Positions 4,439 to 55,492 of a stretch of 64,000 bases of DNA are shown piece by piece (the stretch's first letter is position 1; every line of letters begins with the position of its first letter). A model generated the notes under the pieces. That model made no database searches and was not told the DNA's origin. It worked only from the letters and a program-made list of their open reading frames with translations. Source of the DNA: Spirochaetia bacterium (lineage in GTDB: Bacteria; Spirochaetota; Spirochaetia; CAKZLE01); contig OY782041.1 in assembly GCA_963677595.1 (NCBI GenBank), positions 512,001 through 576,000 of the forward strand, in the 5' to 3' direction. Both the position numbers and the translations under genes were made by a program.

Positions 4439-4445
4439 GGTCACT

Positions 4446-5264: not shown

Positions 5265-6121
5265 GCAGACAGGTCATCTGTGAGCCAGTGCTCACGACAA
5301 AGCAGGTCGAGGATATCCTCCAGCTCTATGCTCTATGCAATGCCGAAGATTCCACTTCCTACACCTTCGACCCAGAAGATAATTTCAGGAAGGGGGATGA
5401 GGTGAACACCTTCGGCCTCTATGAGGGGGACAGGCTCATCGCTGCCCTCACGATCTTCGCCCCCACGCAGCGGGAAGCGGAGATCACCGCACTTACCCTC
5501 CCCGGGAAGAGGAGGTCAGGCTGCTTCAGCTCACTCATGAGGTATGCGCTAAAAGAGATCCAGCGCCGAGGGATCGTATCCATCCTCCTGGTATGTGATG
5601 CGGAATCAGAAGACGGGTTGGGAACCATCTCCGGTATGGGTGCAGCATACGAATACTCCGAGTACCTGATGGCCTACCGGGCAGGGACGCCAGCGGTCAC
5701 AAGGTCAGGAGTGGCCGTATCAGAAGCAGTACCATCGGAGAGAGAGCGGCTGGCATACATCAACCATGCAGCCTTCAGCAGTGACCTGTCCGAAGCGCGG
5801 AGTATCATAGACGAGTTCCTGCACAGCACACGAAGGAGGCTGTACACCATCAGGTTCAACGAGGACATCGTCGGCATGATCGGTGTCTATGACGAATCTA
5901 CCCGGGAGTATTTGTACGGGTTCTGCATCGAACCGAAGTTCCAGCATATGGGTATCGGGAGCCATGCATTAGCAGAGGCTGTGAGGACCTGCTCACATGG
6001 AGAGAAGGAGATCACTCTGGAGGTCCAGGCAGGTAACAGGCATGCGCTGCGCGTCTATGAACGTGCAGGTTTCGCTGTACAAGCTGAATTCAGGTATTAT
6101 CGTATGGGAATGCAGGTATGA
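5261..6121 (+). CDS. Tandem-domain GNAT acetyltransferase
   Basis: QHMGIG acetyl-CoA motif and N..ALRVYERAGF. Confidence 0.8.
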   Translation: MSRQVICEPVLTTKQVEDILQLYALCNAEDSTSYTFDPEDNFRKGDEVNTFGLYEGDRLIAALTIFAPTQREAEITALTLPGKRRSGCFSSLMRYALKEIQRRGIVSILLVCDAESEDGLGTISGMGAAYEYSEYLMAYRAGTPAVTRSGVAVSEAVPSERERLAYINHAAFSSDLSEARSIIDEFLHSTRRRLYTIRFNEDIVGMIGVYDESTREYLYGFCIEPKFQHMGIGSHALAEAVRTCSHGEKEITLEVQAGNRHALRVYERAGFAVQAEFRYYRMGMQV

Positions 6122-6136
6122 GGGGCTTAAAACAAT

Positions 6137-6164
6137 TCAGCCATCCGATTGCTCGAATGGCTGA
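6137..6164. terminator. Hairpin terminator between the GNAT gene and tRNA-Asp
   Basis: TCAGCCAT...ATGGCTGA inverted repeat between convergent genes. Confidence 0.6.
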
Positions 6165-6169
6165 TGTGT

Positions 6170-6243
6170 CGGGAGCGACGGGGATTGAACCCGCGATCTC
6201 CGGCTTGACAGGCCGGCGCGATAACCAGCTTCGCCACGCCCCC
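6170..6243 (-). tRNA. tRNA-Asp(GTC)
   Basis: GGGGGCG/CGCTCCC acceptor stem, CCGGC-CTGTCAA-GCCGG anticodon arm, GGTTCAATCC T-loop. Confidence 0.95.
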
Positions 6244-6280
6244 TTGACTTGAAAGAATTTGCCCTATTTGCCCGGTTTTG

Positions 6281-6925
6281 TCAACCCTTTTGCGTGAAAA
6301 TGGCCCCGTTTTTTCCGCACTCCCCTACTGTAAGGGATAACTCTTTTCCCAGTATAGAGAAAGAGTCAATTGAGAAAAAGGAGATGTGAGTCGGGTCCTC
6401 CTTGTACCACCAGGAGCTGAAGGCTTCCTGATCCATGTTCCCAGTGGTCATGGTCCTGATGACCATCCGTCCTCCAGGAGCCAACAAATCTCCCAAGCGG
6501 GAGAGTGTATCGACTGGATCGGCAAGGTGTTCGATGACCTCGAGCAGGATGATGAGGTCATACTGCTTTTCGGAATACGAGGGGTCCTCACAGAAGTAGC
6601 GGTCGTATGAAGTAACCTCGAACCCCAGCCTGCGAAGCAGGATGGACAGGACCGGTTCTGGTCCTGAACCGAAGTCGAGGATCGATGCTCCTATGGGGCA
6701 GTTCGGCAGGACCGACTGTTTGATGAACTTCTCAAGATAGGCAATATACCCGGTATTCTCGAAGCTGTTGTCATGCAGCAGGTACCGCTGCTTCTCATCA
6801 GGCTCACCGAGCCTGCAGGATTCATCCAGCTGGATAAATCCGCAGTGTTCACAGCGATGGTACCTCCGCGTACCGCGTGAATAGAACAGTGAGAAGCTTT
6901 CAGATATGCAGACAGGACATACCAT
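6281..6925 (-). CDS. Class I SAM-dependent methyltransferase with N-terminal zinc ribbon
   Basis: CPVC and CEHC; LDFGSGP, EVIEH and WWYKEDPTH. Confidence 0.85.
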   Translation of the reverse strand: MVCPVCISESFSLFYSRGTRRYHRCEHCGFIQLDESCRLGEPDEKQRYLLHDNSFENTGYIAYLEKFIKQSVLPNCPIGASILDFGSGPEPVLSILLRRLGFEVTSYDRYFCEDPSYSEKQYDLIILLEVIEHLADPVDTLSRLGDLLAPGGRMVIRTMTTGNMDQEAFSSWWYKEDPTHISFFSIDSFSILGKELSLTVGECGKNGAIFTQKG

Positions 6926-6993
6926 CTGTACATCATAGCAAACTATTTGCTTTCCTGGTACTCCCCCCGTATACTGTGATCAAGGAGGCGTCT

Positions 6994-7923
6994 ATGTCAG
7001 GATCGATCATTCTCTACTTCCAGGAACATGCGAACAGTTTCCTTGACCTCCTGATGCAGGGTATAACGATGGCAGGAGAGCAGATGGTCTTCATTGCCGT
7101 CATCACCTTCATCATCTGGAACATCTCGAAACGAAGCGGCTACATGCTTACCTACACCCTCATGACCTCCTCGATCCTGAACGGGCTGCTCAAGCTGATC
7201 GTCCACTCCCCGAGGCCCTTTCAGGTGCTCGAGGGTATCGAGGGCAAGAGGCTCTCCACCGCAGAGGGATACTCCTTCCCCAGCGGGCATACCCAGGGAG
7301 CGGTCACCTTCTATACAGGTGTTGCTCTCTGCCTGAAGAAGCGGCGGTATATGGCGGCTGCCGTGATCATTGCCGGTCTCGTAGGGCTCTCACGGGTCTA
7401 CCTCGGCGTCCACTGGCCGATCGACGTCATCGGCGGGTTCACGATCGGGCTGCTCTATACCCTGGTCATGTTCACGCTCTTGGAGAGACTCATTGACGAT
7501 CCTATATTCAGGCAGCGGCTGAATCTCATAACGGCAGGTATCTCAGCAGCGGGACTGCTGGTCCTCATTCCTCTGGCTTCAGGGGATTCTGTCCATTATG
7601 AGCAGTACCACAGCCTGATCAAACTCCTGTCGATCACCGGCGGGTTCACGATCGCCTCCTTCTTCGAGGAACGGCAGGTCCACTACGATACCGCCGGGTC
7701 ACTGATGATCAAGCTGCTCAGGTACGTCATCGGCCTTGCAGGAGCCCTGCTTATCATGTACGGATTCAAGCTGATCCTGCCGACCCATGAGATCTCGACG
7801 GTGATTCGCTATGCAGGAGCCGCACTCTGGGCCTTCTACCTCTACCCGCTGATCGGCATCAGGATCCGCATGGATTCTGACGGTACGACCCTGTTCACCG
7901 TATTGACTCCTCCAAATGATTAG
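6994..7923 (+). CDS. PAP2-family membrane phosphatase
   Basis: K..V..PRP, SFPSGH and SRVYLGVHW motifs; AGGAGG before ATG 6994. Confidence 0.9.
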   Translation: MSGSIILYFQEHANSFLDLLMQGITMAGEQMVFIAVITFIIWNISKRSGYMLTYTLMTSSILNGLLKLIVHSPRPFQVLEGIEGKRLSTAEGYSFPSGHTQGAVTFYTGVALCLKKRRYMAAAVIIAGLVGLSRVYLGVHWPIDVIGGFTIGLLYTLVMFTLLERLIDDPIFRQRLNLITAGISAAGLLVLIPLASGDSVHYEQYHSLIKLLSITGGFTIASFFEERQVHYDTAGSLMIKLLRYVIGLAGALLIMYGFKLILPTHEISTVIRYAGAALWAFYLYPLIGIRIRMDSDGTTLFTVLTPPND

Positions 7924-7953
7924 AATACTATCTAATTATCTAAAGAGGATGCT

Positions 7954-8217
7954 ATGGGTAATGTCTATAAGGCGCTCTCCGACCCCACACGACGTTCGAT
8001 GCTCTCGCTGCTGAAGGATTCCGATCTCACTGCAGGGGCGATCGCCGACCAGTTCCAGATGACTGCACCCTCGATCTCCCACCATCTCTCCATCCTCCAT
8101 GACGCAGGACTCGTGACCCGAAGGAAACAGGGCCAGCATGTCATCTACTCGATAAACACGACAGTCCTCCAGGATGTGATGAACTGGCTCATGGGACTGC
8201 AGAAGGACGCACCATGA
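7954..8217 (+). CDS. ArsR-family autorepressor, SdpR-like
   Basis: KALSDPTRR..L..L and SISHHL ArsR HTH; coupled to the SdpI-like gene. Confidence 0.85.
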   Translation: MGNVYKALSDPTRRSMLSLLKDSDLTAGAIADQFQMTAPSISHHLSILHDAGLVTRRKQGQHVIYSINTTVLQDVMNWLMGLQKDAP

Positions 8218-8870
8218 AAGCATACAAACGGTTCTATTACCTCTTCATCCCTATTGCCCTATCATTGATCGCGACCCTCGTCATCTACTCGAAGCTCCCC
8301 GACCAGGTTCCCTCACACTGGAACGCAGCCGGGGAGGTCGACAGCTACAAACCACGGTACTTCGTCATCTTCACCGCCCTGCTCCCGGCCCTGTTCATCT
8401 GGCTACTGAGCGTCATCCCTGCAATCGACCCGAGGGCGAAGAGTTATGAGCAGCACAAGAAGGCATACTCCATCACCGCTGTCTTCGTCGTCATCTTCAT
8501 CCTGGCCATCCACTGGTTCTCCATCCTGGCGTCTCTCGGCATCATCCTCCAGATAGAGTATGCGATCAAGCCGATGATCGGTATCCTATTCATCATCATA
8601 GGGAACTACCTGCCCCAGGCAAAGCAGAACTACACCTACGGGATCAGGACTCCCTGGACACTCGACAACGAGGAGGTCTGGCGGAAGACGACCAGGGTCG
8701 GTGGAAAGGGGTTCGTCATCTGCGGGATCATTATCACCCTGACCGTCCTGCTCCCGGCAAGGCCCTCGTTCTGGATCGTGTCTGGGTCGATCGTCTCGCT
8801 GATCGTCCTGATCTTCCTCTACTCATACCTCGTCTACACGAGACTGGCAAGACAGGGAGACAAACCCTGA
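8214..8870 (+). CDS. SdpI-family immunity membrane protein (DUF1648 + SdpI)
   Basis: LPDQVPSHWN..G.VD and GIRTPWTL...VWRKT motifs. Confidence 0.85.
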   Translation: MKAYKRFYYLFIPIALSLIATLVIYSKLPDQVPSHWNAAGEVDSYKPRYFVIFTALLPALFIWLLSVIPAIDPRAKSYEQHKKAYSITAVFVVIFILAIHWFSILASLGIILQIEYAIKPMIGILFIIIGNYLPQAKQNYTYGIRTPWTLDNEEVWRKTTRVGGKGFVICGIIITLTVLLPARPSFWIVSGSIVSLIVLIFLYSYLVYTRLARQGDKP

Positions 8871-8980
8871 TCTTCGTAATATTTCACGTTATCTAGTGAC
8901 ATAAAACGCAAAGCACCGTAGTATAGTCCATGTGCCTCCCGTTAGGCGCAGAGAATTCTTTAATGAGATGAGTAATACAT

Positions 8981-10144
8981 ATGAGAAAGATAACAACTGG
9001 GCAATTCAATGATTCCCTCTATCCAATCATGGATGGAGTTGGTCTGGTAGCACGGAACTATGCCTACTGGCTGAATGAGAAATATGGGACCGGGTACTGT
9101 ATCGGGCCAAAAGTCCCCGGCTTCGTCGACACTGAGGACTTCATCATTCGCTTCCCGACAATCCCTATCCCAGGAAACGCCCCCTACCGGTATGGCCTGC
9201 CCTGGCTCAAGGGATTCTACAGCAGGATCGACTCGATACCTTTTGATCTGGTCCATACCCACTGTCCTTTCGTAAGCGGAAAAGTGGCCCTGCATGTTAA
9301 AAGGAAACGGAACATTCCATTAGTGACTACCTTCCACTCGAAATACCGGGATGATTTCAAACGGGCATTCAAGACAGAGACTTTTGCAGATATGGCAGTG
9401 AAGCAGATCATGAAATTCTATGATCAAGCAGATCTTGTATGGGTCCCCAATGAACCGACGATAGATGTCCTGAGATCTTATGGGTTCAAAGGCACCATCG
9501 AGGTAAGTATCAACGGTACAGACCTTATCAGCCCGACAGAGCAGGAGCTTGCAAGCCTCAAAGCAGCCGGGTATAGGAACTCTGGTGCCAAAGAGGGGGA
9601 TTTCATCCTGCTCTTCGTAGGACAGCACCGGTGGGAGAAGAACACGAAACTGATGATAGACGGTCTCAAGGAGATCTCTGACTCTGGCTATGCCTTCAAG
9701 GCATTCTTCATTGGGACAGGTCCTGAAGCCGATGAGATGAAACGGATGGCTTCTTCTTATGGCCTTGATGACAAGGTTGAGTTCAAGGGAGTGATACGTG
9801 ATCGTGAGGTGCTGAAATCATATTATGCAATCAGTGACATCTTCATGTTCCCGTCTCTTTACGATACTGCCTCTCTTGTCATGCGGGAGGCCGCAGCATT
9901 CAAGGTACCCACCGTCCTGGTCCGGGAGGCATCTACAGCAAAAGGGGTCGAAGACGGTAAGAACGGGTTCCTGATAGATAACGACTCTTCTTCCTTAGCC
10001 CAGAAGATCATCTATGCCATAGACCATCCGGAAGCACGTGATGCCGCAGGAGAGGGGGCGCAGAAGACTATCTACCTCCCCTGGGAAAAGGTGGTTGACC
10101 AAGTGCATGACAGATATCTGAAGATTATCAGGGATTATACATAG
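8981..10144 (+). CDS. GT4 glycosyltransferase (diacylglycerol glucosyltransferase-like)
   Basis: DSLYPIMDGV, HTHCPF and FMFPSLYDT...EAAA. Confidence 0.8.
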   Translation: MRKITTGQFNDSLYPIMDGVGLVARNYAYWLNEKYGTGYCIGPKVPGFVDTEDFIIRFPTIPIPGNAPYRYGLPWLKGFYSRIDSIPFDLVHTHCPFVSGKVALHVKRKRNIPLVTTFHSKYRDDFKRAFKTETFADMAVKQIMKFYDQADLVWVPNEPTIDVLRSYGFKGTIEVSINGTDLISPTEQELASLKAAGYRNSGAKEGDFILLFVGQHRWEKNTKLMIDGLKEISDSGYAFKAFFIGTGPEADEMKRMASSYGLDDKVEFKGVIRDREVLKSYYAISDIFMFPSLYDTASLVMREAAAFKVPTVLVREASTAKGVEDGKNGFLIDNDSSSLAQKIIYAIDHPEARDAAGEGAQKTIYLPWEKVVDQVHDRYLKIIRDYT

Positions 10145-15400: not shown

Positions 15401-15474
<74 letters not shown>

Positions 15475-15523
15475 TTAGTAAATGTATGTGACGTAAATAA
15501 TTAACTTTTCTAAACTGGTAAGG

Positions 15524-15542
15524 TGTAGCCGCAAAGTAGCCA
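15524..15542 (+). promoter_or_regulatory. Putative integrase arm-binding repeats
   Basis: TGTAGCCG and AGTAGCCA, 11 bp apart; a matching pair TGTAACCA/TGTAGCCA lies at 51169-51188 at the other prophage end. Confidence 0.55.
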
Positions 15543-35869: not shown

Positions 35870-35955
35870 TATCTCCATTTTGACCATGCACACACGGAGC
35901 TACTCCCGCGGTAGGATCGCGATAGATTGTAGAGATTCATCTACCCCCTCCCCCT
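35870..35955 (-). other. Probable cos region
   Basis: GGGGAGGGGG...ACCGCGGGAG tract between the HNH gene and terS, the usual cos position in HK97-like phages. Confidence 0.4.
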
Positions 35956-36312
35956 GCTTGAAGCAAACCGTCCTTGGTGATCCCGAATCACATCTTCGGT
36001 GGCAGTCTTGCGGTTATGGTCAGAGATTCTCTTCGGTACGAGATCATACTTTCGGTGGTCAGGTTCTATCTGAGGATTGTAGGGAGGATTATGATCGACC
36101 GCATAACACGGCCATAGGTCGGTGGGGATTCCTGCTGCAGATAAAACTTCTTCTCGAATCTTCTTCCATCGATGGTCATAACCACGCTGATAGGAAGAGG
36201 ATCGCTGCTTGATTTTGTCTGCAGATCGTTTACATGAAGGGCAATGAGATCCAGTACCTGAAAATGTTCTGCGGCATCTGATACAGATGACTTTATCGTT
36301 CCGCTGTGCCAT
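35941..36312 (-). CDS. Packaging-associated HNH endonuclease (gp74-like)
   Basis: RGYDHRWKKIR, VDH and HNRKTA motifs directly upstream of terS. Confidence 0.8.
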   Translation of the reverse strand: MAQRNDKVICIRCRRTFSGTGSHCPSCKRSADKIKQRSSSYQRGYDHRWKKIREEVLSAAGIPTDLWPCYAVDHNPPYNPQIEPDHRKYDLVPKRISDHNRKTATEDVIRDHQGRFASSRGRG

Positions 36313-36830
36313 GATTTTAGTGTGATACTGGTAGAGACTTGTATGGAAGGACTAACGGCCCAATCTTGGGCCGAATAAAAAAGAATACTCTATATTACTG
36401 ATTTTCCTCTCTGTTTTAAACATATCACTCCTGAGTTTGATTTTTTGCAACTTGTTATTATACATGCAATTATGAGTCTTTCAAACAATAAACATTTGAC
36501 AGCAGTAAGGGAAGAATACTATAATTTATTTGTTCATATTAAAAAGTATATATCACCAAAAAACTCGTATACTCTTATCCTTCAATTTATTTTAAGATTT
36601 AAAGATATTATTCTTACATCCTGAAAATACTCTTTATTCCCATGTAATTACCTTATTTAGTACTGTATTTTCTGTATTGTAAATTATTACTATAAAAATA
36701 AGAGCATTTACACTTTTATAAAACATTATTTCCTATTATTAAGAGTTTTTACACTTGCATTACTAGTTTTTATGGTTTAATATTTTATGTAATAAGTGCT
36801 ATCGATAGTAAAAAAATTCAGGAGTATGAA

Positions 36831-37040
36831 ATGAAAAAACGATCACTGAAAGGCGTCGTAGCTTTAGCCGCAATTCTTGTTTCTGGTTTTGTGATTCCAA
36901 ATCTGGGATTGATGGTACCTGCAGCAGGGGTTGGGATTGCTGTTGGTTCTGCATATTTTGGAGCATGCGCTGTTGCTTGTGGAGCAACAGGTCCTGCTGG
37001 TTGGGGAATCTTTGGTCTGATAACAGCTTGGTCTCTCTAA
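36831..37040 (+). CDS. Hydrophobic Gly/Ala-rich peptide, putative circular-bacteriocin-like precursor
   Basis: AGGAG RBS; 69 aa; first gene of a DUF95/ABC operon; followed by a strong hairpin. Confidence 0.65.
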   Translation: MKKRSLKGVVALAAILVSGFVIPNLGLMVPAAGVGIAVGSAYFGACAVACGATGPAGWGIFGLITAWSL

Positions 37041-37054
37041 AAATTTAACATGAT

Positions 37055-37084
37055 CTACAGTAAAGGCCTTAGCCTTTACTGTAG
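37055..37084 (+). terminator. Stem-loop after the precursor gene
   Basis: CTACAGTAAAGGC-CTTA-GCCTTTACTGTAG, a perfect 13-bp stem. Confidence 0.7.
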
Positions 37085-37091
37085 TAATATT

Positions 37092-37595
37092 ATGAAAAAA
37101 AAGAAATTTCCAATTTTAGCATCCCTCATGATCTGGGGGCTAATAATAATTACCTCATATTACTTTTCTTTGTCTAAAGAAATAGAAATAGATAAACTTT
37201 TAGAAATGTCTCCATTAAATATATGGATTAAGAACCTTTTTGTTTTAGGTTTATATATTTCAGGCATATTTACATATGGTATATCAACAATAATATTAAT
37301 AGTATCAAATGCTACTTATATAGGATATATAGTAATTCCATATGTAAAACACTATTCTCAAATTCACCCATTAATATGGATTTTTGTGGTCCTTGAACTA
37401 TTTTCATATATACTTGCATCTTCAATAGGTCTTCCAAATTTCCTGCGTTTATTTAACGTGAAGATGAGAAAAAATTATAAAGTAGATTTAGCATTAACTA
37501 TTCTATGTAGCTTATTACTACTATTAGCAGCATTTCTAGAAAATCATGATATTAATTATATTAATTCTCAACTGGAGCTTCTATGCAATATTTAA
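37092..37595 (+). CDS. SpoIIM/DUF95-family membrane protein
   Basis: I..KNL, N...IG, LEL.SYILA...G and LLAAFLE signatures. Confidence 0.7.
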   Translation: MKKKKFPILASLMIWGLIIITSYYFSLSKEIEIDKLLEMSPLNIWIKNLFVLGLYISGIFTYGISTIILIVSNATYIGYIVIPYVKHYSQIHPLIWIFVVLELFSYILASSIGLPNFLRLFNVKMRKNYKVDLALTILCSLLLLLAAFLENHDINYINSQLELLCNI

Positions 37596-38140
37596 AATTC
37601 ATACTAATTCTTATTTGCGCCTTTGTTCAAACAAAAGTACAAATAGTTAATTTTTCATTTATAGATCTTTCAGATGGGGCAATACCATCAATAGTTAATT
37701 CAAACATCTATTTAGCTTTCATGACATTAATACAATTCTTTATTTATATCGTCTTAGCTAAAATATATACAAAAGCATATTTTTACTTTTTTTTATATGA
37801 TTCTGAAATAAAAGACTCAGAGCAAATTCTCTATAATTCAATTTGCAGGTCTTATATTGTATTTTTAATCTCAGGTATATTATTTCTTTTTTTTGCAAGA
37901 ATCCAACCAGGTTCTTATGAATTATATATTTTTGGCACACACAAAGATGGAAATTCTATAAATAGCTTTGTTATGTTGGCATTAGCCTTTATTCAAGCTA
38001 TAATAGTTTTTTTTCAATTTTATATACAAGTTCTTAAGCAAGAGGAAAATATCAATAAATTTCTTAGATTATTAACTCTTTGTATAATATTACTAATCGT
38101 ACATTTACCTGGAGTGATCCACTTTGGAGGAACTTTTTGA
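37583..38140 (+). CDS. Multi-pass membrane protein (possibly Yip1-like)
   Basis: About five hydrophobic segments within the operon. Confidence 0.55.
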   Translation: MQYLKFILILICAFVQTKVQIVNFSFIDLSDGAIPSIVNSNIYLAFMTLIQFFIYIVLAKIYTKAYFYFFLYDSEIKDSEQILYNSICRSYIVFLISGILFLFFARIQPGSYELYIFGTHKDGNSINSFVMLALAFIQAIIVFFQFYIQVLKQEENINKFLRLLTLCIILLIVHLPGVIHFGGTF

Positions 38141-38862
38141 TTCAAATTAAAAATATATCAAAGCAAATATCCAATAACTTAATTCTTAATAATATTAGTT
38201 TAGATTGCCCAGAAAACAGTATTTATGCACTCATTGGGCCTAATGGAGTTGGAAAAACAACATTAATAAGATGCATTCTAGGAATTTATTCAATTCAAAC
38301 GGGTAAAATATTCATAGATAAAGTGCCAGTTATTTATAATAATTTTTCAACACCATCACATGTTGGTGTTTTTACAGACGATGCAAAAATGTATCCGAAT
38401 CTTTCCGTTAAAGATAATTTAAACTATTATTATTCTTTTTATGAAAAAAAAATATTTAGCAATAATATTTTGTTAATTATTGAAGAACTTGGATTAATGA
38501 AATATTTAGATACTAAATATTATGCCCTATCAACCGGGAATAAAAGGAAGTGTGGTATAGTTAGATCCCTTTTAAATAACCCTAAAATTATTATTTGGGA
38601 TGAACCTTTCGCCTCTCTAGACCCAGAAAGCATCTTTGAATTAAAAACTCTTATTAAACATCTTAAAAGTTTGAAGAAAACAATTTTTATTACATCAAAC
38701 GATCTTAATCGTCTTGAATTGATTTATGATAAAGTAGGTTTTTTCTATACAAATGAACTTTTAGCAGAATACCAAGCAAATTCCTTAAAAACCATGTATA
38801 AGGGCTCTTCACTAGAAGAAATATATTTCAAACTAAAAAAAGAGATTGTTACATATGATTGA
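38137..38862 (+). CDS. ABC transporter ATP-binding protein
   Basis: GPNGVGKT, LSTGNKRK and WDEP; TTG start after GGAGG. Confidence 0.9.
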   Translation: MIQIKNISKQISNNLILNNISLDCPENSIYALIGPNGVGKTTLIRCILGIYSIQTGKIFIDKVPVIYNNFSTPSHVGVFTDDAKMYPNLSVKDNLNYYYSFYEKKIFSNNILLIIEELGLMKYLDTKYYALSTGNKRKCGIVRSLLNNPKIIIWDEPFASLDPESIFELKTLIKHLKSLKKTIFITSNDLNRLELIYDKVGFFYTNELLAEYQANSLKTMYKGSSLEEIYFKLKKEIVTYD

Positions 38863-39613
38863 AAATAAAATATTCCTTTTTGACTTAAAAAATATTTTAA
38901 GAGATAAAAAAACAATGATCACCGTTTTTATTAACTTACTAATCCAATTATTATTATGCTTTTCATTAGTCATAATCAAACTTACAAGCAAAGAAAGCAT
39001 TTTAGAGCCCCTTGCTATTTATATAACTGAAAATTATTCTCCTTTCTTTTTTCTTATTAACTATATTTATCCTGTCTACATATTTGTCTTATTATCTGTA
39101 ATCCCCTTTGTAATCGGATTATCACTTGTAAGTTCAGAGAAAGAAATGGGAACCTTAGAATCTTTACTATATTTACCAATTAAAAGAAGAAGTATTTTTT
39201 ATACAAAAATCATATGTCTTTTTATTGTATCTTATTGCTTATCTCTTATTTGTGTTCTAACCCAACTAATAATATTTGTAATATTTTCAGGTCCACAAAC
39301 ATTAGATCTATTGTTTTGGATTAAGTACTTACTAATATATTTACCATTCTGGATAGCCTTTATTTCTTCAATTATTACCATTATTTCCACAATTTCTAAA
39401 ACCACCAAAGAAGCTAATCAGTTTTCATTAGGTTTTTGTTTTGCTCTACTAATTTTAGTTCAAGGTAGCACCATTTTTAAAATCAATATATTTTCACATT
39501 ATTTTTTTCTGATTATTTTAGTTTTATCTGTTATACCAATTATAATGACTCTTATATGGATTGCTAGAAATTTACAAATTGAAAAAATACTTTTTAGGAT
39601 TTCAAAGTACTGA
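38855..39613 (+). CDS. ABC-2 type permease
   Basis: EKEMGTLESLLYLPI.R..I...K motif. Confidence 0.85.
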   Translation: MIENKIFLFDLKNILRDKKTMITVFINLLIQLLLCFSLVIIKLTSKESILEPLAIYITENYSPFFFLINYIYPVYIFVLLSVIPFVIGLSLVSSEKEMGTLESLLYLPIKRRSIFYTKIICLFIVSYCLSLICVLTQLIIFVIFSGPQTLDLLFWIKYLLIYLPFWIAFISSIITIISTISKTTKEANQFSLGFCFALLILVQGSTIFKINIFSHYFFLIILVLSVIPIIMTLIWIARNLQIEKILFRISKY

Positions 39614-39793
39614 TGATAATTCATCATCAATTGTGCAAAAATCAGATCCTCTAAAATAGAATTTACCACTTTTTAAAAGTCGTTTAATATGGCTCGTAGA
39701 AGTATTCAAAGCTTGAGCACAATCCTTTATTGATTCAAAATTCTCAGTTTTATTGGATATATTCCAAAAGACAATCACTGGTCTCCGTCGCAT
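39602..39793 (-). CDS. Small NUMOD1-like DNA-binding protein
   Basis: FESIKDCAQALN.S.S.I motif; GGAGG RBS. Confidence 0.55.
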   Translation of the reverse strand: MRRRPVIVFWNISNKTENFESIKDCAQALNTSTSHIKRLLKSGKFYFRGSDFCTIDDELSSVL

Positions 39794-39802
39794 ACGTTCC
39801 TC

Positions 39803-40612
39803 CTAAAACAACTCCTGCTGTCCCATATCAAGATCATAATTTGCTGTCAGCACTTCTATCTTGGTAGTCTTCCGATTCTTCGATTTCGAGTTCACACTCA
39901 TCTTCATTTCTAGTTCTCTTTGCTCCCATCCATGCTCTTTCGTGAATTCTTTCAAGATGTCACTGGGGTATGAACTCAGGAGGAACCGACCCTCAATCTT
40001 TGAAAGGTGCTCCAATAGTTGACGATAATCTTCTTCAGAATATCCATCGTAATGACCGCAGTCAGATCCGATGTAGGGCGGATCACAATAGAAGAAAGCA
40101 TCTGGAGCATCATAACTTCTGATAATCCTCAGTGCATCAGTACATTCAATATCAACTTTCTGCAGTCGAATAGCATAATCAAGCGTGAAAGAATTCCGCT
40201 TATTCATCACCTTCAATGACGTCTGACCAGTATGGTCATACCCATAGGTCCCGCCAAGCATCGAGCCAAAACTCTGTGCTGCAGTTACCCATACCGCCCA
40301 GGCGCGCTTGATTTTATCAAACATATCCGGGTTGTTATAAATCACATTTGCCTGACGGTGAATACTCCTACTATGGAGACTGATCTGAATCTCTTTTTCC
40401 AATGATACGTAGTCTCTCTGTATGACCTCATAGAAATTGATTAGTTCCGCATTGACATCGTTGATCACTTCATTCTCTGATGGTTTCTTGCTGAAGAAGA
40501 TAGCCCCTCCTCCAAGAAACGGCTCACAGTACGTTCTATGTTCTGGGATCAAGGGTAAAATGGTCGATACTAATTGCTGCTTTCCTCCGTAATACGTCAA
40601 AGGTGTCTTCAT
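39803..40612 (-). CDS. D12-class N6-adenine DNA methyltransferase
   Basis: YYGGK, EPFLGGG, EVIND and YCDPPY. Confidence 0.92.
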   Translation of the reverse strand: MKTPLTYYGGKQQLVSTILPLIPEHRTYCEPFLGGGAIFFSKKPSENEVINDVNAELINFYEVIQRDYVSLEKEIQISLHSRSIHRQANVIYNNPDMFDKIKRAWAVWVTAAQSFGSMLGGTYGYDHTGQTSLKVMNKRNSFTLDYAIRLQKVDIECTDALRIIRSYDAPDAFFYCDPPYIGSDCGHYDGYSEEDYRQLLEHLSKIEGRFLLSSYPSDILKEFTKEHGWEQRELEMKMSVNSKSKNRKTTKIEVLTANYDLDMGQQELF

Positions 40613-46173: not shown

Positions 46174-46285
46174 TGGGGGATGGTGGACTTGAACCACCGA
46201 CCCTGCGGGAACCAGGGCTTATCCTATATTGCCTGGCTATATATCGCCTGGGTCCCGATGCTCTGACCATCTGAGCTAATCCCCC
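46174..46285 (-). ncRNA. tRNA-like element 2 (anticodon loop replaced by a long hairpin)
   Basis: GGGGGAT/ATCCCCC-A acceptor, TA-GCTC-AGATGGTCA-GAGC D-arm, GGTGG-TTCAAGT-CCACC T-arm; 112 nt in total. Confidence 0.8.
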
Positions 46286-46517: not shown

Positions 46518-46573
46518 GTTTCTCGTCTCCCCTGGTAAGGTGTAGCCATTTCGCCTTACAGATTCACCAGACT

Positions 46574-48400: not shown

Positions 48401-49375
48401 ATGGCTGAAACGAAAAACATAAGTGAAATGGCAAATAGAATATCGGAAGAGATATTCAAAGTATTTGGATGGGAAAGAGTTGGTCAGAATGATAAAAACT
48501 GGCCATGTATCAATCCAGATCACAAGAAGAAGACTCACCCTACGGATTGTGTTTTTACATATCCTGATCCTTACTCGAATTCGCATACATACTTCAATTG
48601 TGACTTGAAAAGTTATAAGGAAACATCAATTACAACAAAATCATTTCGAGACTCATTAATAAGTTTAGCTATGGGGAGTTCCTGTGCAAAAAAAAGTAAG
48701 GAATGGCAAAACGCTTATATTACAAATGAAGTAAATTCTAATATTCATGGATTATTATTTATCTTTAACTATAATAATTTATATGATAAAGACTTATATA
48801 TTGAGTTAGAAAAAATTACCAAAACAGCTTTACCATTGAATATCAATACAAAATTATTTCTTATAACTCCAAAAGATATTAGACTTTTAAATACAATTGC
48901 TAATGATATCATGGTATCTATAGGAAAAAATGTATTACCATCATTTGAGAATATTTCCTTTTTTTATCCGGATCAAGATAGCAGGATCACAACGAAATCA
49001 AATTGGAAAAAAGCTGCTACGATAGAAATGTTGAAAAGCCAATGGATAATCTTAAAACATCGTAAAGATAGTTCAATCCCTAATTATGATGGTTTGACAA
49101 TTTACTATAAAAGCAGAGGGACGATTAGAGAAGAATTCGTATATTTAATTGACTATCTAGTGCATTGGCAGATAATTAGCAGCATCAACAATATTACAAT
49201 CAAATTAGTCAATCCAGATGAAAGTGCATTTGAGTTAGCTGAAAAAGCCAAATCTACTTACTGTTCAAGATATAGTATTTATGAAAATCATGAATCTACA
49301 ATAAAAAGTATAAAAATCAAATCAGTTCAAAATGTAATTCCTACTTTTTATGAAGCAGAAATTGGTATGGAGTAA
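48401..49375 (+). CDS. PD-(D/E)XK-like nuclease, GapS4a-like candidate defence protein
   Basis: E...IF..FGW...C...H...THP.D.VF.Y.DP...DLKSY pattern. Confidence 0.55.
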   Translation: MAETKNISEMANRISEEIFKVFGWERVGQNDKNWPCINPDHKKKTHPTDCVFTYPDPYSNSHTYFNCDLKSYKETSITTKSFRDSLISLAMGSSCAKKSKEWQNAYITNEVNSNIHGLLFIFNYNNLYDKDLYIELEKITKTALPLNINTKLFLITPKDIRLLNTIANDIMVSIGKNVLPSFENISFFYPDQDSRITTKSNWKKAATIEMLKSQWIILKHRKDSSIPNYDGLTIYYKSRGTIREEFVYLIDYLVHWQIISSINNITIKLVNPDESAFELAEKAKSTYCSRYSIYENHESTIKSIKIKSVQNVIPTFYEAEIGME

Positions 49376-49380
49376 TTAAT

Positions 49381-50499
49381 ATGGAGTTTAAATCAGTTTT
49401 TTACCCTACAGAAATGGATTTATATGATGCTTTCATCTCAAATCACCAGAAGGTGACAAATAATTATCTAATAACGTTGCTGAGAGATAAGGGTATTTTG
49501 GTTTCCAATGATTGTTCACGAGAATTCTTAGTAGGTTATGTTTCACAATTAAATTTTGATTACCTCGAATTTAAAAACATTTCAAACTATCTTACACCTA
49601 GCAGTAGATCGGAAAAAACTACTTCAGAAATTATTGAAACTGAAATCAATGATGATGAAATACTACAGGGCTTTGATAATCTAAAAGAAGCAAGAGGGAG
49701 TCATAATGAAAATTATAATATTGTTCTTCTTGAAGGAGCAAACACCACAAGAATAGAAATTTTCTATGAAGAAGTTGATCATTCAAAAACAAGAGTAATC
49801 CAAAAAGTCACTAAAGAAGGATTTATTGATATAGTAAAAACTGATAAAGGAATAAAAATCCGTCATACATCAAATGATAGAGTAGCGAGAATTAAAGATT
49901 CTTTTATTAAACAGATCGCAGAGAACAAGGACGATAAAATTGAACCTATTAGAATTTCATTTAGCGGTATTGCAGATTTAAAATACCAAACCATATTCTT
50001 TACTAGTTTATTGAAATATATAAAAGGATTGACTCCTGAGACTGTTGTCAAAATAAGTCTTAGTAGAGATGATATTACCCCACTTGATTTAGATATTGAC
50101 GATGCAGAAAAAGAGGACCTAGAGGATAATATGCGTCAATGTATTAGAAAAGCAAGATTTGATGGGGAAAGTCTTTTAGAAACAGACATCTACCAAGAGT
50201 TGAAGCAAAAAGGATATTATTTAACATCAATGCGTTGGATTTCTCTTGAGAATCTAAATAACCCGAGGAAATTTGAATTTGAAGCTTCATTTGTGGATAG
50301 AGGATATGCAATTGTTTTTGAATATTCGCTTAAGGGAGTATATAATTTTAAAAAAGAAAAATACACAAACCTAATTACAAAAATACCAGAAGATGAGAAA
50401 AAAAATCTAATATCCAGATTTGAAACTGCAGCAAATCAGGTTTATACTAAAATAATTAACGAAATCAAAGAGTTGAAAAATGACAATAAGAACATATAA
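49381..50499 (+). CDS. GapS4b-like partner protein
   Basis: L..LLRDKGILV...RE.L.....L....EF......EK.TS N-terminus; coupled to the nuclease gene. Confidence 0.5.
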   Translation: MEFKSVFYPTEMDLYDAFISNHQKVTNNYLITLLRDKGILVSNDCSREFLVGYVSQLNFDYLEFKNISNYLTPSSRSEKTTSEIIETEINDDEILQGFDNLKEARGSHNENYNIVLLEGANTTRIEIFYEEVDHSKTRVIQKVTKEGFIDIVKTDKGIKIRHTSNDRVARIKDSFIKQIAENKDDKIEPIRISFSGIADLKYQTIFFTSLLKYIKGLTPETVVKISLSRDDITPLDLDIDDAEKEDLEDNMRQCIRKARFDGESLLETDIYQELKQKGYYLTSMRWISLENLNNPRKFEFEASFVDRGYAIVFEYSLKGVYNFKKEKYTNLITKIPEDEKKNLISRFETAANQVYTKIINEIKELKNDNKNI

Positions 50500-51160
50500 G
50501 ATCAATTATAACTTTGATTTGGATATCCTGTTTAAAGGGATGCAATCCTGCCCATATAATGAAGATGAAAAAAGTGGGTACTTCATTGATAGCTTCATTA
50601 ATAATCAAATTGAAGGACGATTTGTTTTAAAAAGAATCTTCTCCGAAGAATCTATTTCTCCAATAGATGGAGAAATTCAACTTAACGAAATAATTCAATT
50701 TGAGGTTTTTCATTTCAAGATTTTTCATGATAATAAAATACTGATGCTCTATAATTCTCCAAGAAGCACATCAATTTTCTTCACTAGTATTAACTCTCTA
50801 TTCGATTTTTCAATATCAATAGAAAAATGTGATTTGAATCTTTTAAACTTTATTGAAAACGTGAAATTAAAAACTGATATCAATGAAGTTATATATTTAG
50901 AATTATGTAATATCTCATTTTCGAATCTTACAAAGGGAAAGGTCATAATTTCAGGCAATGAAAATGTTATACCATATATTGAAAAAGCAACATTCCATTC
51001 CACAAACTATGAGATAAATCGATTAGGTTTAAAAATAATTTTTAATGACAAACCAATTAGATTAGATATTACAAATACTGGGTCTTATAGGGTTGCTGAT
51101 TCCTATGCCCATTTTGTTCTCCCGAAGATCTCTGAAGCTATACTTGATTATTTTGAATGA
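50480..51160 (+). CDS. Third gene of the candidate defence operon
   Basis: Overlaps the upstream gene; same AT-rich composition. Confidence 0.55.
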   Translation: MTIRTYKINYNFDLDILFKGMQSCPYNEDEKSGYFIDSFINNQIEGRFVLKRIFSEESISPIDGEIQLNEIIQFEVFHFKIFHDNKILMLYNSPRSTSIFFTSINSLFDFSISIEKCDLNLLNFIENVKLKTDINEVIYLELCNISFSNLTKGKVIISGNENVIPYIEKATFHSTNYEINRLGLKIIFNDKPIRLDITNTGSYRVADSYAHFVLPKISEAILDYFE

Positions 51161-51369
51161 TCGTTTTATGTAACCAGTTATGTAGCCAATTGAGTGCTAT
51201 TGACCTATATAATTTGGTATATTTTAATATTGATTAACTTTTTATTTTGTTATATAGTATAAATATATAAAATTTTAAATGAGGCTTCTTGCGGTTCAAC
51301 CCACATTCCTCACTATTTCTCAGCAAAAAACGGGTATTTAATTTCGGGCTAAAATCGGTTTAAAAAGCG

Positions 51370-51732
51370 CTACCCTTCATCGTCCAAGAGGACCAAAATG
51401 GCTTCATACGCATCCTGAGAGAGCTTCTTCATGGCATTCATCGTCTTCTCCAGGGTTCTCCTGTTCTCAATCCATGGTTGGAGGACCTCAGCCTGCTGCT
51501 CTGTGAGCTTCCTGGCTACGGTCTTCCCGCCCTTTTTGGTCGTCCAATAGTAATACGGTCCATGCTTGGCCTCAGTGTCTGTATGACACTTGCACGAGGG
51601 GTTCCCGCAGGTAAGAAACCGTTTGGAGATGGATCCTGACCAGATAAATTCGATCGTGCTCAGTTCCTTGGCGAGTTCCTGCTGTTTGCGGCGAAGTACC
51701 TGAAGGCGCTTCTGTGCCGTCTCGGTGGTCAT
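51370..51732 (-). CDS. DUF6788-like IS accessory protein
   Basis: GSIS.....CGNPSCKC......HGPYYYWT; lies inside the IS ends. Confidence 0.7.
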   Translation of the reverse strand: MTTETAQKRLQVLRRKQQELAKELSTIEFIWSGSISKRFLTCGNPSCKCHTDTEAKHGPYYYWTTKKGGKTVARKLTEQQAEVLQPWIENRRTLEKTMNAMKKLSQDAYEAILVLLDDEG

Positions 51733-51822
51733 GACTTGACTCCTCTCTTGTCCTACTGTATAATACAGTAGGTTCAGTGATCAGTCAAGTCCTGTTTCCA
51801 CGACCGCTACAGGAGGATACCG

Positions 51823-53526
51823 ATGGCCAGTACTCCGCCCCTTTCAACCCTGTTTCAGCATACCAGAATCTATACCCATTCCTACCTGCCCATTGCGGCG
51901 GCCTACTGCCGCATGCTCGGGTTGAGAGACATCGTGGATGCGGCGGTGGAGACCCGTATGCAGCTATCTCCGGGGCTCGTGGTACAGACGATGGTGCTCG
52001 ATGTCCTGCATGGACGGTCGCCGCTGTATCGGATCGAGCAGTTCATCGAGCAGCAGAACCGCAGCCTATTGCTGGGACAGGAGGTAGATCCGCATCTGTT
52101 CAATGACACGAACATAGCTCGGTCCCTGGATGCGATCTTCGATGCCGGCCCATCGAAGATTGTGACCGAACTGGGGATTCGGGCAGCACAGGTCTTCGAT
52201 CTGGATATGCATGCCCTCAGTTACGATACTACCAGTACGAGTGTCTGGGGGGAATACCGGGGGAGTGAGCAGGAAAAGACCCCGGGGCCTTCGATCGTCC
52301 TGGGGCACTCCAAGGATCACCGACCGGATCTCAAGCAGTTCATGACGGAGTTACTGTGCGTGGATCATGGGGTCCCAATCTTCAGCAGTACCCTCAATGG
52401 GAACTCCTCAGACAAGACGTCTAACAATGCGATGCTCACACGGATCAGTACACTGCTCTCCCGACATGGGTTGGGAGATGGGGCCTGTATCTATGTTGCA
52501 GACTCGGCCATGGTGACGCAGGAGAATCTGGAGGCTTTAGGGTCGATGCCATTCATCAGCCGTCTTCCGGCAACCTACGGCGCATGTGACCAGGCAATAA
52601 GGGAAGCGATCGGAGCGGGTCGCTGGAGTCCCATAGGCATGATGGCTGAAACACCAACAGGGAAGAACCGGCCTCCTGCGATCTATAAGGGGTGCGAGAC
52701 GACGGTAACGTTGTATGAAAAGCCCTATCGCGGGGTCGTGATACATTCGAGTTCCCATGATAAGCGAAGGCAGAAGAAGATTGACAAAGCGATTGAGCAA
52801 TCGTTGAAGGAGCTGAACGGGAAATTGAAGAAAGTTCAGCGACAGTATTACTGCAGCGAAGATGCGCAGGTTGCTGCTGCCAACCTCGCTGCGGTCTCTT
52901 CCCCGCTGCACTCGTTAACGGTTACGATCCAAGAAGTGGCGGTTCGGCGTCGTGGACGTCCCCCGAAGGAGGGTCCGCCGCCTGTAGATCTGCGGTATGA
53001 GTTGAACTGGGAGATCACCGAAAAGTCGGACAAGCTGCAGGTGCTCAGAGAGCAGGCAGGATGTTTTGTGCTGCTTACCAATGTTGCTGTTGCATCGCTT
53101 GATGCCGCATCGGTACTGCGTACGTACAAAGGCCAGTATGGGATCGAGAGTGATTTTTCATTCCTCAAGGATCCCCTGGTAGTCAATGACCTGTTTCTGA
53201 AAACCCCTTCCCGCATAGATGCATTGGGGATGATTCTCGTGATCGCCCTGATGGTCTGGCGGTTGATGGAGCGGCAGATGCGGCGGTATCTCCAGAAGGA
53301 AGGTACTACGGTACCAGGCTGGGACAACAAACCGACGGCAAAGCCGACTTCATTCATGATGAGTACCGTGTTTGGCGGTATCATGGCGGCAGAGATGGGA
53401 GCAGAAGCGGTGCTGGTAAATCCGCTCTCTTCCCGTCAGTTGGCCTTCCTGTCTGCATTGGGTCTTGATGAACGCGTATTCTACGACAAGGGGGTGAGGT
53501 GTGTCCTGACCTCTCTGCATGCATGA
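51823..53526 (+). CDS. IS1634-family DDE transposase
   Basis: YDTTS, GHSKDHRPDLKQ, VADSA and YK.QY.IE..F.FLK.P. Confidence 0.9.
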   Translation: MASTPPLSTLFQHTRIYTHSYLPIAAAYCRMLGLRDIVDAAVETRMQLSPGLVVQTMVLDVLHGRSPLYRIEQFIEQQNRSLLLGQEVDPHLFNDTNIARSLDAIFDAGPSKIVTELGIRAAQVFDLDMHALSYDTTSTSVWGEYRGSEQEKTPGPSIVLGHSKDHRPDLKQFMTELLCVDHGVPIFSSTLNGNSSDKTSNNAMLTRISTLLSRHGLGDGACIYVADSAMVTQENLEALGSMPFISRLPATYGACDQAIREAIGAGRWSPIGMMAETPTGKNRPPAIYKGCETTVTLYEKPYRGVVIHSSSHDKRRQKKIDKAIEQSLKELNGKLKKVQRQYYCSEDAQVAAANLAAVSSPLHSLTVTIQEVAVRRRGRPPKEGPPPVDLRYELNWEITEKSDKLQVLREQAGCFVLLTNVAVASLDAASVLRTYKGQYGIESDFSFLKDPLVVNDLFLKTPSRIDALGMILVIALMVWRLMERQMRRYLQKEGTTVPGWDNKPTAKPTSFMMSTVFGGIMAAEMGAEAVLVNPLSSRQLAFLSALGLDERVFYDKGVRCVLTSLHA

Positions 53527-53747
53527 ACTTCGTAGGTGTACCTGCGTCTGATCCTCAGAACCTATGAGAAGGCTGGTTACTGTCCTGATCATCAGCATGT
53601 CTGTTCAGACGGGGTAGCAACCAGGCGGATTTGCCGATTTTTATGCCGTGTGGAGGATCGGTAAGGATGAATAGCCCTTCGTAGTCTCAATCCTTTCCTG
53701 AAATGGAAAATCCTGCTATGTGTGCGTCATGAAAGTGAGGAATGTGG

Positions 53748-53769
53748 GGTTCAACTCCCCTTACCTCCA
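53748..53769 (+). repeat. attR core
   Basis: Copy of the tRNA-Ala 3' end. Confidence 0.9.
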
Positions 53770-53844: not shown

Positions 53845-54495
53845 ATGAAGCAAGAGAAACCGCTCTCAAAAACTCAACAAATCCGGAATCAGATACTACG
53901 GCTGGAGAAAGGAACCATCTTTTTATCGGATATTATTGATCTAAGCGATAGATCTGTGCTTCGAGTGATTCTATCACGCATCATTGCTGAAGGATTGATT
54001 GAGCGGCTTGGGCCCGGAATCTATCTATACCCGAGATATTCAGCATTACTGCAAAGAAATGTAACACCATCTCTAGAGGAAATCGCACAAGCCATTGCAC
54101 TGAAAGAACACTCAAGGATTGTACCTTCCGGTTCGTATTCAATGTACAAACTCGGATTTACAACACAGGTTCCCACGAAAGCTGTGTTCCTTACTGATGG
54201 CTCACCTAGAAAGATCACATTGGTCGATGGCAGAACAATCTTATTTAAATCAACGACGGCAAAGAACCTTGCTTTCAAAAATCCCCTTATGCAGTTATTG
54301 GTCTCAAGTCTCAAAATGATGAGATCAACCAATATCTCACCTGAGCAGTTAGTAAAGATTCGTTCTTTACTCACACATATACCTGATAAGGATTTTCAAT
54401 CTGATATCAAGCTGGCACCGGAAAGGATCCAAAAACTATTGATCCAACACAGGGAGGATACCCATGTTGCTCTGCAACCTATCGAAACAGGATAG
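53845..54495 (+). CDS. AbiEi-type antitoxin (DUF6088-like)
   Basis: LSR....G.IERLG.GIY, LGFTTQVP and FLTDGSPR. Confidence 0.85.
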   Translation: MKQEKPLSKTQQIRNQILRLEKGTIFLSDIIDLSDRSVLRVILSRIIAEGLIERLGPGIYLYPRYSALLQRNVTPSLEEIAQAIALKEHSRIVPSGSYSMYKLGFTTQVPTKAVFLTDGSPRKITLVDGRTILFKSTTAKNLAFKNPLMQLLVSSLKMMRSTNISPEQLVKIRSLLTHIPDKDFQSDIKLAPERIQKLLIQHREDTHVALQPIETG

Positions 54496-55492
54496 AATAG
54501 ATATTTTCAATGAAGCTGAAACACAAATGTTTATCGTTAGTAAAGCTATAGAGAAGGACTGGTGGGTATGCATTATATTGAAAGCCTTATTTTCAACTAA
54601 ATTTTATGATTATCTTGTTTTCAAGGGAGGTACTTCGCTTAGCAAAGGCTGGCACCTTATTGAGAGGTTCTCTGAGGATATCGATATTTCCATCCAAAGG
54701 GAATATCTTGGATTTGGGAACACTCTATCAAAAACACAAATCAGCAACAGATTACGTCGTGCTTCATGCTCTTTCGTAAGAACAGATCTGAAAAATGCTG
54801 TATCAGATGAGCTTTTAAAACTCGGAGTACCGGCAGCCCAATTCAACATCTCTGTGGAAAAAACAGCAGTGACCACTGTTGACCCGGAAAGAATCTTTGT
54901 CGAATATGAAAGTGTCTTTGATGATCCAGTGAATACCTATATTCACCCAAGCGTGATCATTGAAGCTGGGGCTAGAAGCATCTATGAACCCGCATCAAGA
55001 AGAACGATCAAGTCATTCATCTCGGAGTTATTCCCCAATCAGCCTTTCTCAGATACAGGAGTTGTTGTACATATTGCTCCTGCAGAAAGAACCTTTCTTG
55101 AAAAAGCATTTCTTCTTCATGAAGAATTCCATAAGCCAGAAGAATGCATTCGATCTGAACGAATGAGTCGCCATCTCTATGATCTGGAAAGGATGATGGA
55201 CACTCCTATATCGAAGGTTATAGGAAACACAACGATGTACCATGAAATAGTGGATCATCGAAAAAGGTATTTTGGCCTTAAAGGATTTAACTATGATACA
55301 TTGGACTATGGGTCCATAGATTTCGTCCCTCCTGAGACTGTTGCCAAGGTATGGAAACAGGACTATCAGGCTATGCGTGAATCAATCATTTATGGGCCTT
55401 CACTAACATATGAAAGCTTGATTGCACGTATTCAAGAATTGAATCGTATATTCCACCATCATGCTACAGATAGCACATCGAAATTTCCTTAA
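54464..55492 (+). CDS. AbiEii nucleotidyltransferase toxin
   Basis: IEKDWW, FKGGTSLSK, RFSEDID and SRHLYD. Confidence 0.9.
   Translation: MLLCNLSKQDRIDIFNEAETQMFIVSKAIEKDWWVCIILKALFSTKFYDYLVFKGGTSLSKGWHLIERFSEDIDISIQREYLGFGNTLSKTQISNRLRRASCSFVRTDLKNAVSDELLKLGVPAAQFNISVEKTAVTTVDPERIFVEYESVFDDPVNTYIHPSVIIEAGARSIYEPASRRTIKSFISELFPNQPFSDTGVVVHIAPAERTFLEKAFLLHEEFHKPEECIRSERMSRHLYDLERMMDTPISKVIGNTTMYHEIVDHRKRYFGLKGFNYDTLDYGSIDFVPPETVAKVWKQDYQAMRESIIYGPSLTYESLIARIQELNRIFHHHATDSTSKFP

Follow-up and report, generated by a model that had tools for sequence, protein, structure and literature searches.

Here we describe, in a 64,000-nucleotide stretch of contig OY782041.1 from a Spirochaetia bacterium (hereafter the window), a prophage-borne cassette of five plus-strand open reading frames (ORFs), which overlap or abut one another and are bordered on both sides by phage genes running on the minus strand (Table 1). 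The cassette encodes a small peptide precursor, a short DUF95/SpoIIM membrane protein, a second membrane protein with five predicted transmembrane (TM) segments, and the ATPase and the permease of an ATP-binding cassette (ABC) transporter; by its gene content it falls within the genetic definition of a circular-bacteriocin cluster. In agreement with the first-pass annotation of this DNA, which had proposed an AT-rich operon oriented counter to its phage neighbours, the ORFs lie where it had placed them and their GC content is 27.1% versus 54.6% for the genome, in which only 0.1% of the segments of the same size are equally low.

Using Pfam, we recovered the DUF95 identity that had been put forward for the second gene (PF01944 SpoIIM, 36.2 bits for a cut-off of 26.9), as well as the ABC ATPase and permease identities, and the DUF95 protein is a candidate maturation or export factor. 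The 185-residue membrane protein returned neither a Pfam nor a Foldseek match, and its Atlas feature scores of 0.84-0.86 serve as a lead only. The ABC ATPase likely starts at the TTG codon, judging from the GGAGG site upstream of it. The 13-bp hairpin noticed earlier behind the precursor gene is real, with an energy of -22.9 kcal/mol (z -5.46) that was equalled by 0 of 200 shuffled sequences. No terminator-type T-run stands 3' of it, and it likely tunes the level of the precursor mRNA above that of the downstream genes. Sigma-70 matches are not enriched in the AT-rich stretch (22 sites versus 24.7 expected from shuffles), and the cassette promoter is a candidate.

Table 1. Features of the cassette, of its prophage and of one related locus (positions in the window unless a locus is named)
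Feature	Position	Strand	Basis or remark
Precursor gene, 69 amino acids (aa)	36831-37040	+	ORF; split into leader and core
Predicted leader, residues 1-24	36831-36902	+	Basic N-terminus, hydrophobic helix, ends Ile-Pro-Asn
Predicted core Leu25-Leu69 (45 aa) and stop	36903-37040	+	Uncharged, Gly/Ala-rich
Ribosome-binding site (RBS) AGGAG of the precursor	36820-36824	+	Six bases upstream of ATG, read from sequence
Sigma-70-like promoter, perfect match, candidate for the cassette	36496-36525	+	12/12 consensus positions
Perfect 13-bp hairpin	Stem 37055-37067 / 37072-37084	+	Between precursor and DUF95 genes
DUF95/SpoIIM membrane protein, short stand-alone, 167 aa	37092-37595 (alternative start 37050)	+	PF01944
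Membrane protein, 185 aa, 5 predicted TM	37583-38140	+	Hydropathy; weakly Yip1-like
ABC transporter ATPase	38137-38862 (longest ORF from 38080)	+	ABC_tran, 99.9 bits
ABC-2-type permease, 6 predicted TM	38855-39613 (alternative start 38846)	+	PF12679 ABC2_membrane_2, 52.6 bits
Host prophage	15451-53769		HK97-type head genes, tail tube, tape measure; bounded by att repeats
Variable low-GC cargo slot	36313-39802		Between HNH-like gene and Dam-type methylase
HNH-like gene flanking the slot	35941-36312	-	
Dam-type methylase flanking the slot	39803-40612	-	
Four-TM protein, 137 aa	L005 669-1082	+	Directly after 71-aa family member; unrelated-looking, not DUF95

A phmmer search of 1.84 billion representative sequences returned four relatives of the precursor and a profile search 11, which together with the window copy make a family of 12 (the cluster mates P0006, P0007, P0015 and P0016 of included rows were left out of the 12-row alignment, P0007 being an 87-aa extension; P0012-P0014 and the locus L005 form a 71-aa subfamily). 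The best change point of conservation in this alignment is residue 25, where conservation rises into the core: the leaders (23-26 aa) have a mean pairwise identity of 22% over 66 pairs and carry every charge, and the cores (45-46 aa) have a mean pairwise identity of 58% and not one charged residue in any of the 12 members, with grand averages of hydropathy of 1.18-1.42. As the first-pass annotation had observed, the window peptide has no K, R, D, E or H beyond Lys7; a charge-free stretch of the last 45 residues occurs in only 4 of the 14,092 six-frame ORFs of at least 60 aa in the genome. Nine positions are invariant (L25, P30, S40, A45, G54, P55, W58, G62 and W67), and all 12 aligned sequences stop two residues past W67, so that the core ends W-x-(L/A/F). 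The residue preceding the core varies (N in three, C in four, F in three, H and S in one each); the first core residue is always Leu, the second is small and the last is L, A or F. Three leaders, that of the window copy included, end in Ile-Pro-Asn, the cleavage site itself being predicted. Codon changes in the core are mostly at third positions (e.g., 13/10/35 by codon position relative to L005), so that the peptide gene is genuine and under selection.

It is the lack of charge that truly marks the family, and the cysteine pair is incidental. Indeed, the CAVAC and TGPAGW motifs singled out earlier do occur in the window peptide, but they are not family features: CxxxC and the exact TGPAGW are each found in one member of 12, and GPxGW in 11. 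We rejected the cysteine pair as a family disulfide or modification site, given this single occurrence and the five cores devoid of Cys, and also a lipoprotein reading prompted by the Cys at position -1 in four members, as this Cys is not conserved and is preceded by Pro. An AlphaFold model of the linear precursor shows three long helices at low confidence (predicted local distance difference test 68, predicted template-modelling score 0.34), and a fold search with it gave a best Z of 6.0, to unrelated helices. A predicted complex of DUF95, five-TM protein and precursor scored 0.20 versus a mark of 0.32, which speaks neither for nor against their interaction. The predicted monoisotopic mass of a cyclic Leu25-Leu69 core is 4205.13 Da.

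A precursor, a DUF95 protein and an ATP-binding protein are reported as the set common to all described circular-bacteriocin clusters (PMC8534725, PMC8659200), in line with the hallmark invoked in the first-pass annotation. DUF95 has been termed class-defining for circular bacteriocins (PMC13289728), is reported to be specific to circular clusters among bacteriocins (PMC7452424, PMC11580447) and has been proposed to be the cleaving and ligating enzyme (PMC13463998); an additional five-TM protein is described as essential in the cluster studied there (PMC13463998). The window cassette comprises a DUF95 gene, an ABC ATPase and permease, and a small hydrophobic precursor with a variable leader and a conserved core with hydrophobic ends.

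Two subgroups of circular bacteriocins can be compared with it. Subgroup ii (gassericin A, acidocin B, butyrivibriocin AR10, plantaricyclin A and plantacyclin B21AG; PF12173), whose reported marks are a neutral hydrophobic core and an Asn at the site before the core (PMC8659200), shares with the present family a hydrophobic near-neutral core (in all 12 members), a 22-35-aa leader, the Asn of the window copy, and a cluster in which the precursor is accompanied by a short DUF95, an ABC ATPase, an ABC-2 permease and a membrane protein of 170-185 aa. The butyrivibriocin AR10 precursor is reported to have Ile-Pro-Asn directly before Ile-Tyr-Phe. The two groups differ in the core, of 45-46 aa here versus about 58 aa in subgroup ii (10.1101/2025.10.31.685828), in the Asn, present in only 3 of 12 members, in plantacyclin B21AG having three K/R and one D/E versus zero charged residues here, in the absence here of a 54-aa immunity gene, of the conserved His of DUF95 and of any detectable homology (no PF12173 match in the 12 members), and in the hosts, which are spirochaetes here. 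Subgroup i (AS-48, circularin A, uberolysin and pumicyclin A; PF09221) shares DUF95, the ABC ATPase and a Yip1-like/five-TM accessory protein, but its cores are cationic (60-70 aa, net charge +2 to +6; 10.1101/2025.10.31.685828), whereas the spirochaete core is uncharged and matches neither PF09221 nor any NCBIfam family. Mutagenesis of circularin A and pumicyclin A is reported to reveal a tolerant -1 position, a bulky hydrophobic +1, a small +2 and a hydrophobic last residue (PMC13463998), and the present family fits these patterns at Leu25 and at the C-terminus. From these points together we infer leader removal before Leu25, Leu69-Leu25 ligation and ABC export.

The DUF95 protein of the window also stands apart from other spirochaete proteins of its domain family. 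In 300 genomes of the same class, the other SpoIIM matches above the cut-off number 28, each of at least 320 aa, so that the short DUF95 next to the peptide is distinct, and no precursor-plus-ABC cassette was flagged at these 28 loci read with 1.5-kb flanks. The long forms (320-660 aa) share the PF01944 domain and its conserved positions (Asn, Glu and the C-terminal AAxxE), but they keep the His of the H-x-x-x-E motif, which the window protein lacks.

The cassette is not confined to this prophage. We read the gene contexts of four relatives (L005-L008) and found the same gene order in all three contigs of Treponema metagenome-assembled genomes (MAGs; L006-L008), as far as these contigs reach: L007 is complete from the peptide to the permease, and L006 and L008 end, with their contigs, within the third gene. 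The DUF95 orthologues are 34-39% identical to the window protein (L006 with 33.7 bits to PF01944), the five-TM proteins 24-27%, and in L007 the ATPase 43% and the permease 36%. A GGAG-type RBS precedes the peptide gene in L005-L008 too. A hairpin of other sequence stands at the equivalent place in L008 (-25.4 kcal/mol) and, weaker, in L007 (-11.3), and no clear one was seen there in L006. All three Treponema cassettes are AT-rich (24-30% GC versus 33-43% in the flanks) and lie outside prophages. That of L007 begins 3.4 kb past the integrase end of a prophage, after two genes that we take to encode a dehydrogenase and a fumarase. It stands between the two copies of a 312-bp duplication (90% identical) of the 3' end of the fumarase-like gene (9340-9651 and 12770-13081 of L007), which suggests an insertion. 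In L008, a divergent permease-ATPase-permease operon (5643-7483, minus strand), bracketed by a 95-bp direct repeat (87%), lies 2.5 kb upstream of the cassette and is possibly an accessory self-resistance exporter.

As to its distribution, the precursor profile matched 3 of the 338 genomes searched in the Treponema genus, none of the five other genomes of the host's own order, none genuinely in a 400-genome sample of the phylum, and only already known loci in a 400-genome sample of the Treponema family. No relative of the peptide or of DUF95 was confirmed in viral contigs, phage and plasmid records gave no match, PHROGs gave none for the four cassette proteins scanned, and a single-sequence DUF95 query found only itself and none of 60 relatives. 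Several candidate loci were dropped as spurious: L004 (E 4e-4), whose match falls within a T4-like baseplate-region gene, L009 and L010, from Acidobacteriota, whose 23-residue matches sit in long ORFs with no cassette, G138 (two matches containing stops) and G1076 (a match inside a 197-aa frame).

In the window, the phage carriage claimed earlier is clear: the prophage is bounded by a 24-bp att core (15451-15474, at the 3' end of a tRNA-Ala gene, repeated at 53746-53769) and encodes, by Pfam, an integrase, holin, tape measure, tail tube, capsid, protease, portal and both terminase subunits. It is, however, one of several settings, since no Treponema locus lies inside a prophage. The cassette occupies a slot of 26.8% GC, versus 52.2% for the prophage structural genes. 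In a sister phage contig (L020; large terminase subunit TerL 74%), which alone among the four closest phage contigs extends across this slot, both flanks are matched at 68-73% nucleotide identity and the slot (3235-8955) holds other genes instead, namely a methylase with an HsdR-N domain, a specificity subunit, a Panacea-domain protein with its partner, and a DUF2971-like gene. The cassette is thus cargo that can be exchanged, with the features of phage morons, i.e. its own orientation, an atypical GC content and replacement by other genes in a related phage. One public sequencing run contains a second phage variant, about 92% identical, in the flanks and none across 36260-40286, which is suggestive only. 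From the slot swap and from the same gene order in three Treponema MAGs outside prophages, we conclude that the cassette is mobile rather than a phage-specific system; its patchy spread, together with a GC content that is low in all hosts (24-30%), is in keeping with a mobile competition trait. The bacterium that carries the prophage is in all likelihood a spirochaete and, as proposed earlier, a diderm: its ribosomal proteins uL5 and uS8 have their best PDB match in entry 8FMW (260 versus 237 bits and 159 versus 143 bits for the next entry), a code associated with a Borrelia ribosome paper, and its genome encodes an Omp85 protein above the cut-off (an 887-aa frame ending in Tyr).

Other features of this region were observed. 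A 63-aa ORF (39602-39793, minus strand) immediately follows the Dam-type methylase gene and converges on the cassette; it has a good RBS and weak matches to HNH-endonuclease-associated PHROGs (E 0.035-0.047). Further along the prophage, a second AT-rich cargo (48401-51160, plus strand) comprises three genes matching Hp1, Hp2 and Hp3 of PADLOC (E 1e-65, 1e-37 and 3e-12), and forms a complete three-gene defence system, known as 3HP. A multi-copy insertion sequence (51298-53748), of which the genome contains at least six further near-identical copies or parts, borders on and overlaps the right att core and may affect prophage excision. Just outside this att site lies a type IV toxin-antitoxin-like pair of DUF6088 and AbiEii-type nucleotidyltransferase genes (53845-55492, plus strand). 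The phage also carries a tRNA-like gene (46174-46285, minus strand; Rfam 47.6 bits, not called by ARAGORN) and an exact 16-bp direct repeat, one copy of which lies shortly before the integrase on its upstream side (15515-15530) and the other in the early region (46532-46547), and which is a possible integrase-arm or regulator site.

We propose that the 69-residue precursor is likely cleaved before Leu25, that the DUF95 and five-TM proteins likely join the core head-to-tail (Leu69 to Leu25) into an uncharged 45-residue ring, and that the ABC ATPase/permease pair likely exports it. The ring would probably act as a membrane-permeabilising antibacterial on competitors. As no small immunity gene was found, self-protection would fall to DUF95 and the ABC exporter. 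The cassette itself has no outer-membrane channel or adaptor gene, so that the uncharged product would reach the periplasm first or stay in or between the envelope membranes, neighbours being reached by contact, vesicles or lysis. The phage would gain from a more competitive lysogen; phage-borne bacteriocins are reported to benefit lysogens, as does the sublancin cluster of Bacillus phage SPbeta, which is temperate-phage-borne too, although its product is a glycocin and it includes modification enzymes and an immunity gene of its own (10.1101/2020.10.01.322628). Gene content and order, mobility, the split in conservation between leader and core, the zero charge and the prophage slot are directly supported. 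Closure of the core into a ring seems to us fairly probable, and to the whole reading, comprising cleavage, cyclisation, export and an antibacterial role, we give a probability of about 0.45.

The following points weigh against this reading. First, none of the 12 family members has a Pfam, NCBIfam or PDB sequence match, which also bears out the earlier suggestion of a new peptide family, and hhalign gave only 0.2% against the plantacyclin B21AG precursor and 0.5% against its DUF95 (PlcD), i.e. no homology. In a comparison of features, the Atlas clusters that come closest are those of class IIc cyclic bacteriocins (0.80) and of circularin/uberolysin (0.79), which are a weak lead only, with values below the level often reached by shuffled proteins. 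Second, the predicted core is 13 residues below the shortest described subgroup (about 58 aa), and the precursor model places only two helices in it, versus the usual four to five (PMC13463998). Third, in the absence of charge, electrostatic attraction cannot bring the peptide to target membranes. Fourth, Phe replaces the His four residues before the conserved Glu in all four DUF95 proteins of the family, whereas this His is present in PlcD, the sole bacteriocin DUF95 compared, and in all ten aligned long spirochaete SpoIIM proteins. Two of the four (L007 and L008) fall short of the Pfam E threshold of 0.01, though 34% identical to the window protein. Fifth, no small immunity ORF with an RBS was found on the plus strand in 36300-39850; such a gene is reported as absent in 3 of 10 AS-48-type clusters (PMC7132975). 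Sixth, in L005 (a 1.2-kb contig of 56% GC) the 71-aa member is followed by a four-TM protein and not by DUF95, this protein being a candidate immunity protein or part of an orphan precursor-immunity pair. Seventh, in the leucocyclicin Q cluster a cyclic product is reported to form even without DUF95 (PMC7132975).

If the product is confined to the envelope it could, given the other cargo of the slot, have a self-acting anti-phage role, in which the processed and probably cyclised peptide would stay in the envelope of the producer and block DNA entry or adsorption of rival phages by superinfection exclusion or membrane remodelling. An uncharged hydrophobic core and the absence of outer-membrane export and immunity genes suit a peptide of this kind, and the prophage carries the Hp1-Hp2-Hp3 cargo in addition to a slot which, in L020, holds restriction-modification-type and Panacea-domain antitoxin genes. 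Against this stand the three Treponema copies outside prophages, the lack of any PADLOC 2.0 match for the peptide, DUF95, five-TM protein and permease (the ATPase had generic P-loop matches only) and the fact that a slot once holding defence genes need not always hold them; we regard this alternative as unlikely. It is similarly unlikely that residues 1-24 are an ordinary Sec-like signal and that a linear peptide, microcin- or class IId-like, is the mature form, with DUF95, the five-TM protein and the ABC transporter serving only export and self-resistance. The basic N-region and hydrophobic helix of all 12 leaders would suit such a signal, as would the loss of the DUF95 His, the DUF95-less L005 and the leucocyclicin Q ring, which implies that DUF95 need not mean ring closure. 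Yet no conserved small-x-small signal-peptidase motif precedes Leu25 (P/G at -2, N/C/F/H/S at -1), the constant C-terminal register and the hydrophobic ends are as expected for a ligation site, and DUF95 is, as mentioned, reported to be specific to circular clusters. Least probable of all is that the peptide is a small membrane subunit, signal or structural element of the transporter, similar to bacteriocin systems in gene content only, as the absence of homology to bacteriocins, the predicted helical hairpin and the 5-12 small-xxx-small motifs per core might suggest, for the leader/core split, the strong RBS and the hairpin after the peptide gene point to a product made in excess and the rare, mobile distribution is unlike that of housekeeping transporters.

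Regarding the novelty of the cyclic-bacteriocin reading, 6,925 of 6,928 predicted circular-bacteriocin precursors come from Bacillota (PMC8534725), which agrees with the earlier statement that such clusters are almost only known there; the main text of that survey names only Firmicutes, two Actinobacteria and one Thermotogae, the last of which weakens the novelty of a host outside Bacillota. In a rumen survey, 9 of 10 predicted circular bacteriocins were reported from Lachnospiraceae (PMC13289728). We found no spirochaete circular bacteriocin in the literature covered, from which subscription journals are mostly absent, and the supplements of PMC8659200 and PMC7132975 contain no spirochaete name and no GPAGW motif. 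The word "circular" is absent from the main text of the phage-borne bacteriocin survey (10.1101/2020.10.01.322628). Since phage-borne bacteriocins and neutral cores are both known, neither alone is surprising, and the uncharged precursor highlighted earlier is unusual in that its zero charge extends to the whole family but not in being neutral and hydrophobic, which already marks subgroup ii. The departures from known clusters are the shorter core, the zero charge, the lack of a small immunity gene, the His-less DUF95 and the diderm host, and what is new is that zero charge, a 45-aa core, a His-less DUF95, a spirochaete host and a defence-type phage slot occur together. We consider it rather improbable that these peptides form a new subgroup, the shortest and the sole fully uncharged cyclic peptides, made in diderm spirochaetes with a His-less DUF95, retained in the envelope and delivered by phages as superinfection excluders or contact-range toxins.

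The ring-closing enzyme of circular bacteriocins is still only proposed, and the cassette puts three points to the test, namely ring closure and export in a diderm, the need of charge for activity, and which DUF95 residues matter. In addition, because its phage slot otherwise serves genes of defence type, an anti-phage role of a cyclic peptide can be tested. Even as a plain bacteriocin, the peptide would be a new scaffold, one that precursor-driven mining does not see. If the reading as a new subgroup is true, this peptide class would extend to anti-phage defence in diderms, and the cassette would offer a minimal system to identify the cyclase.

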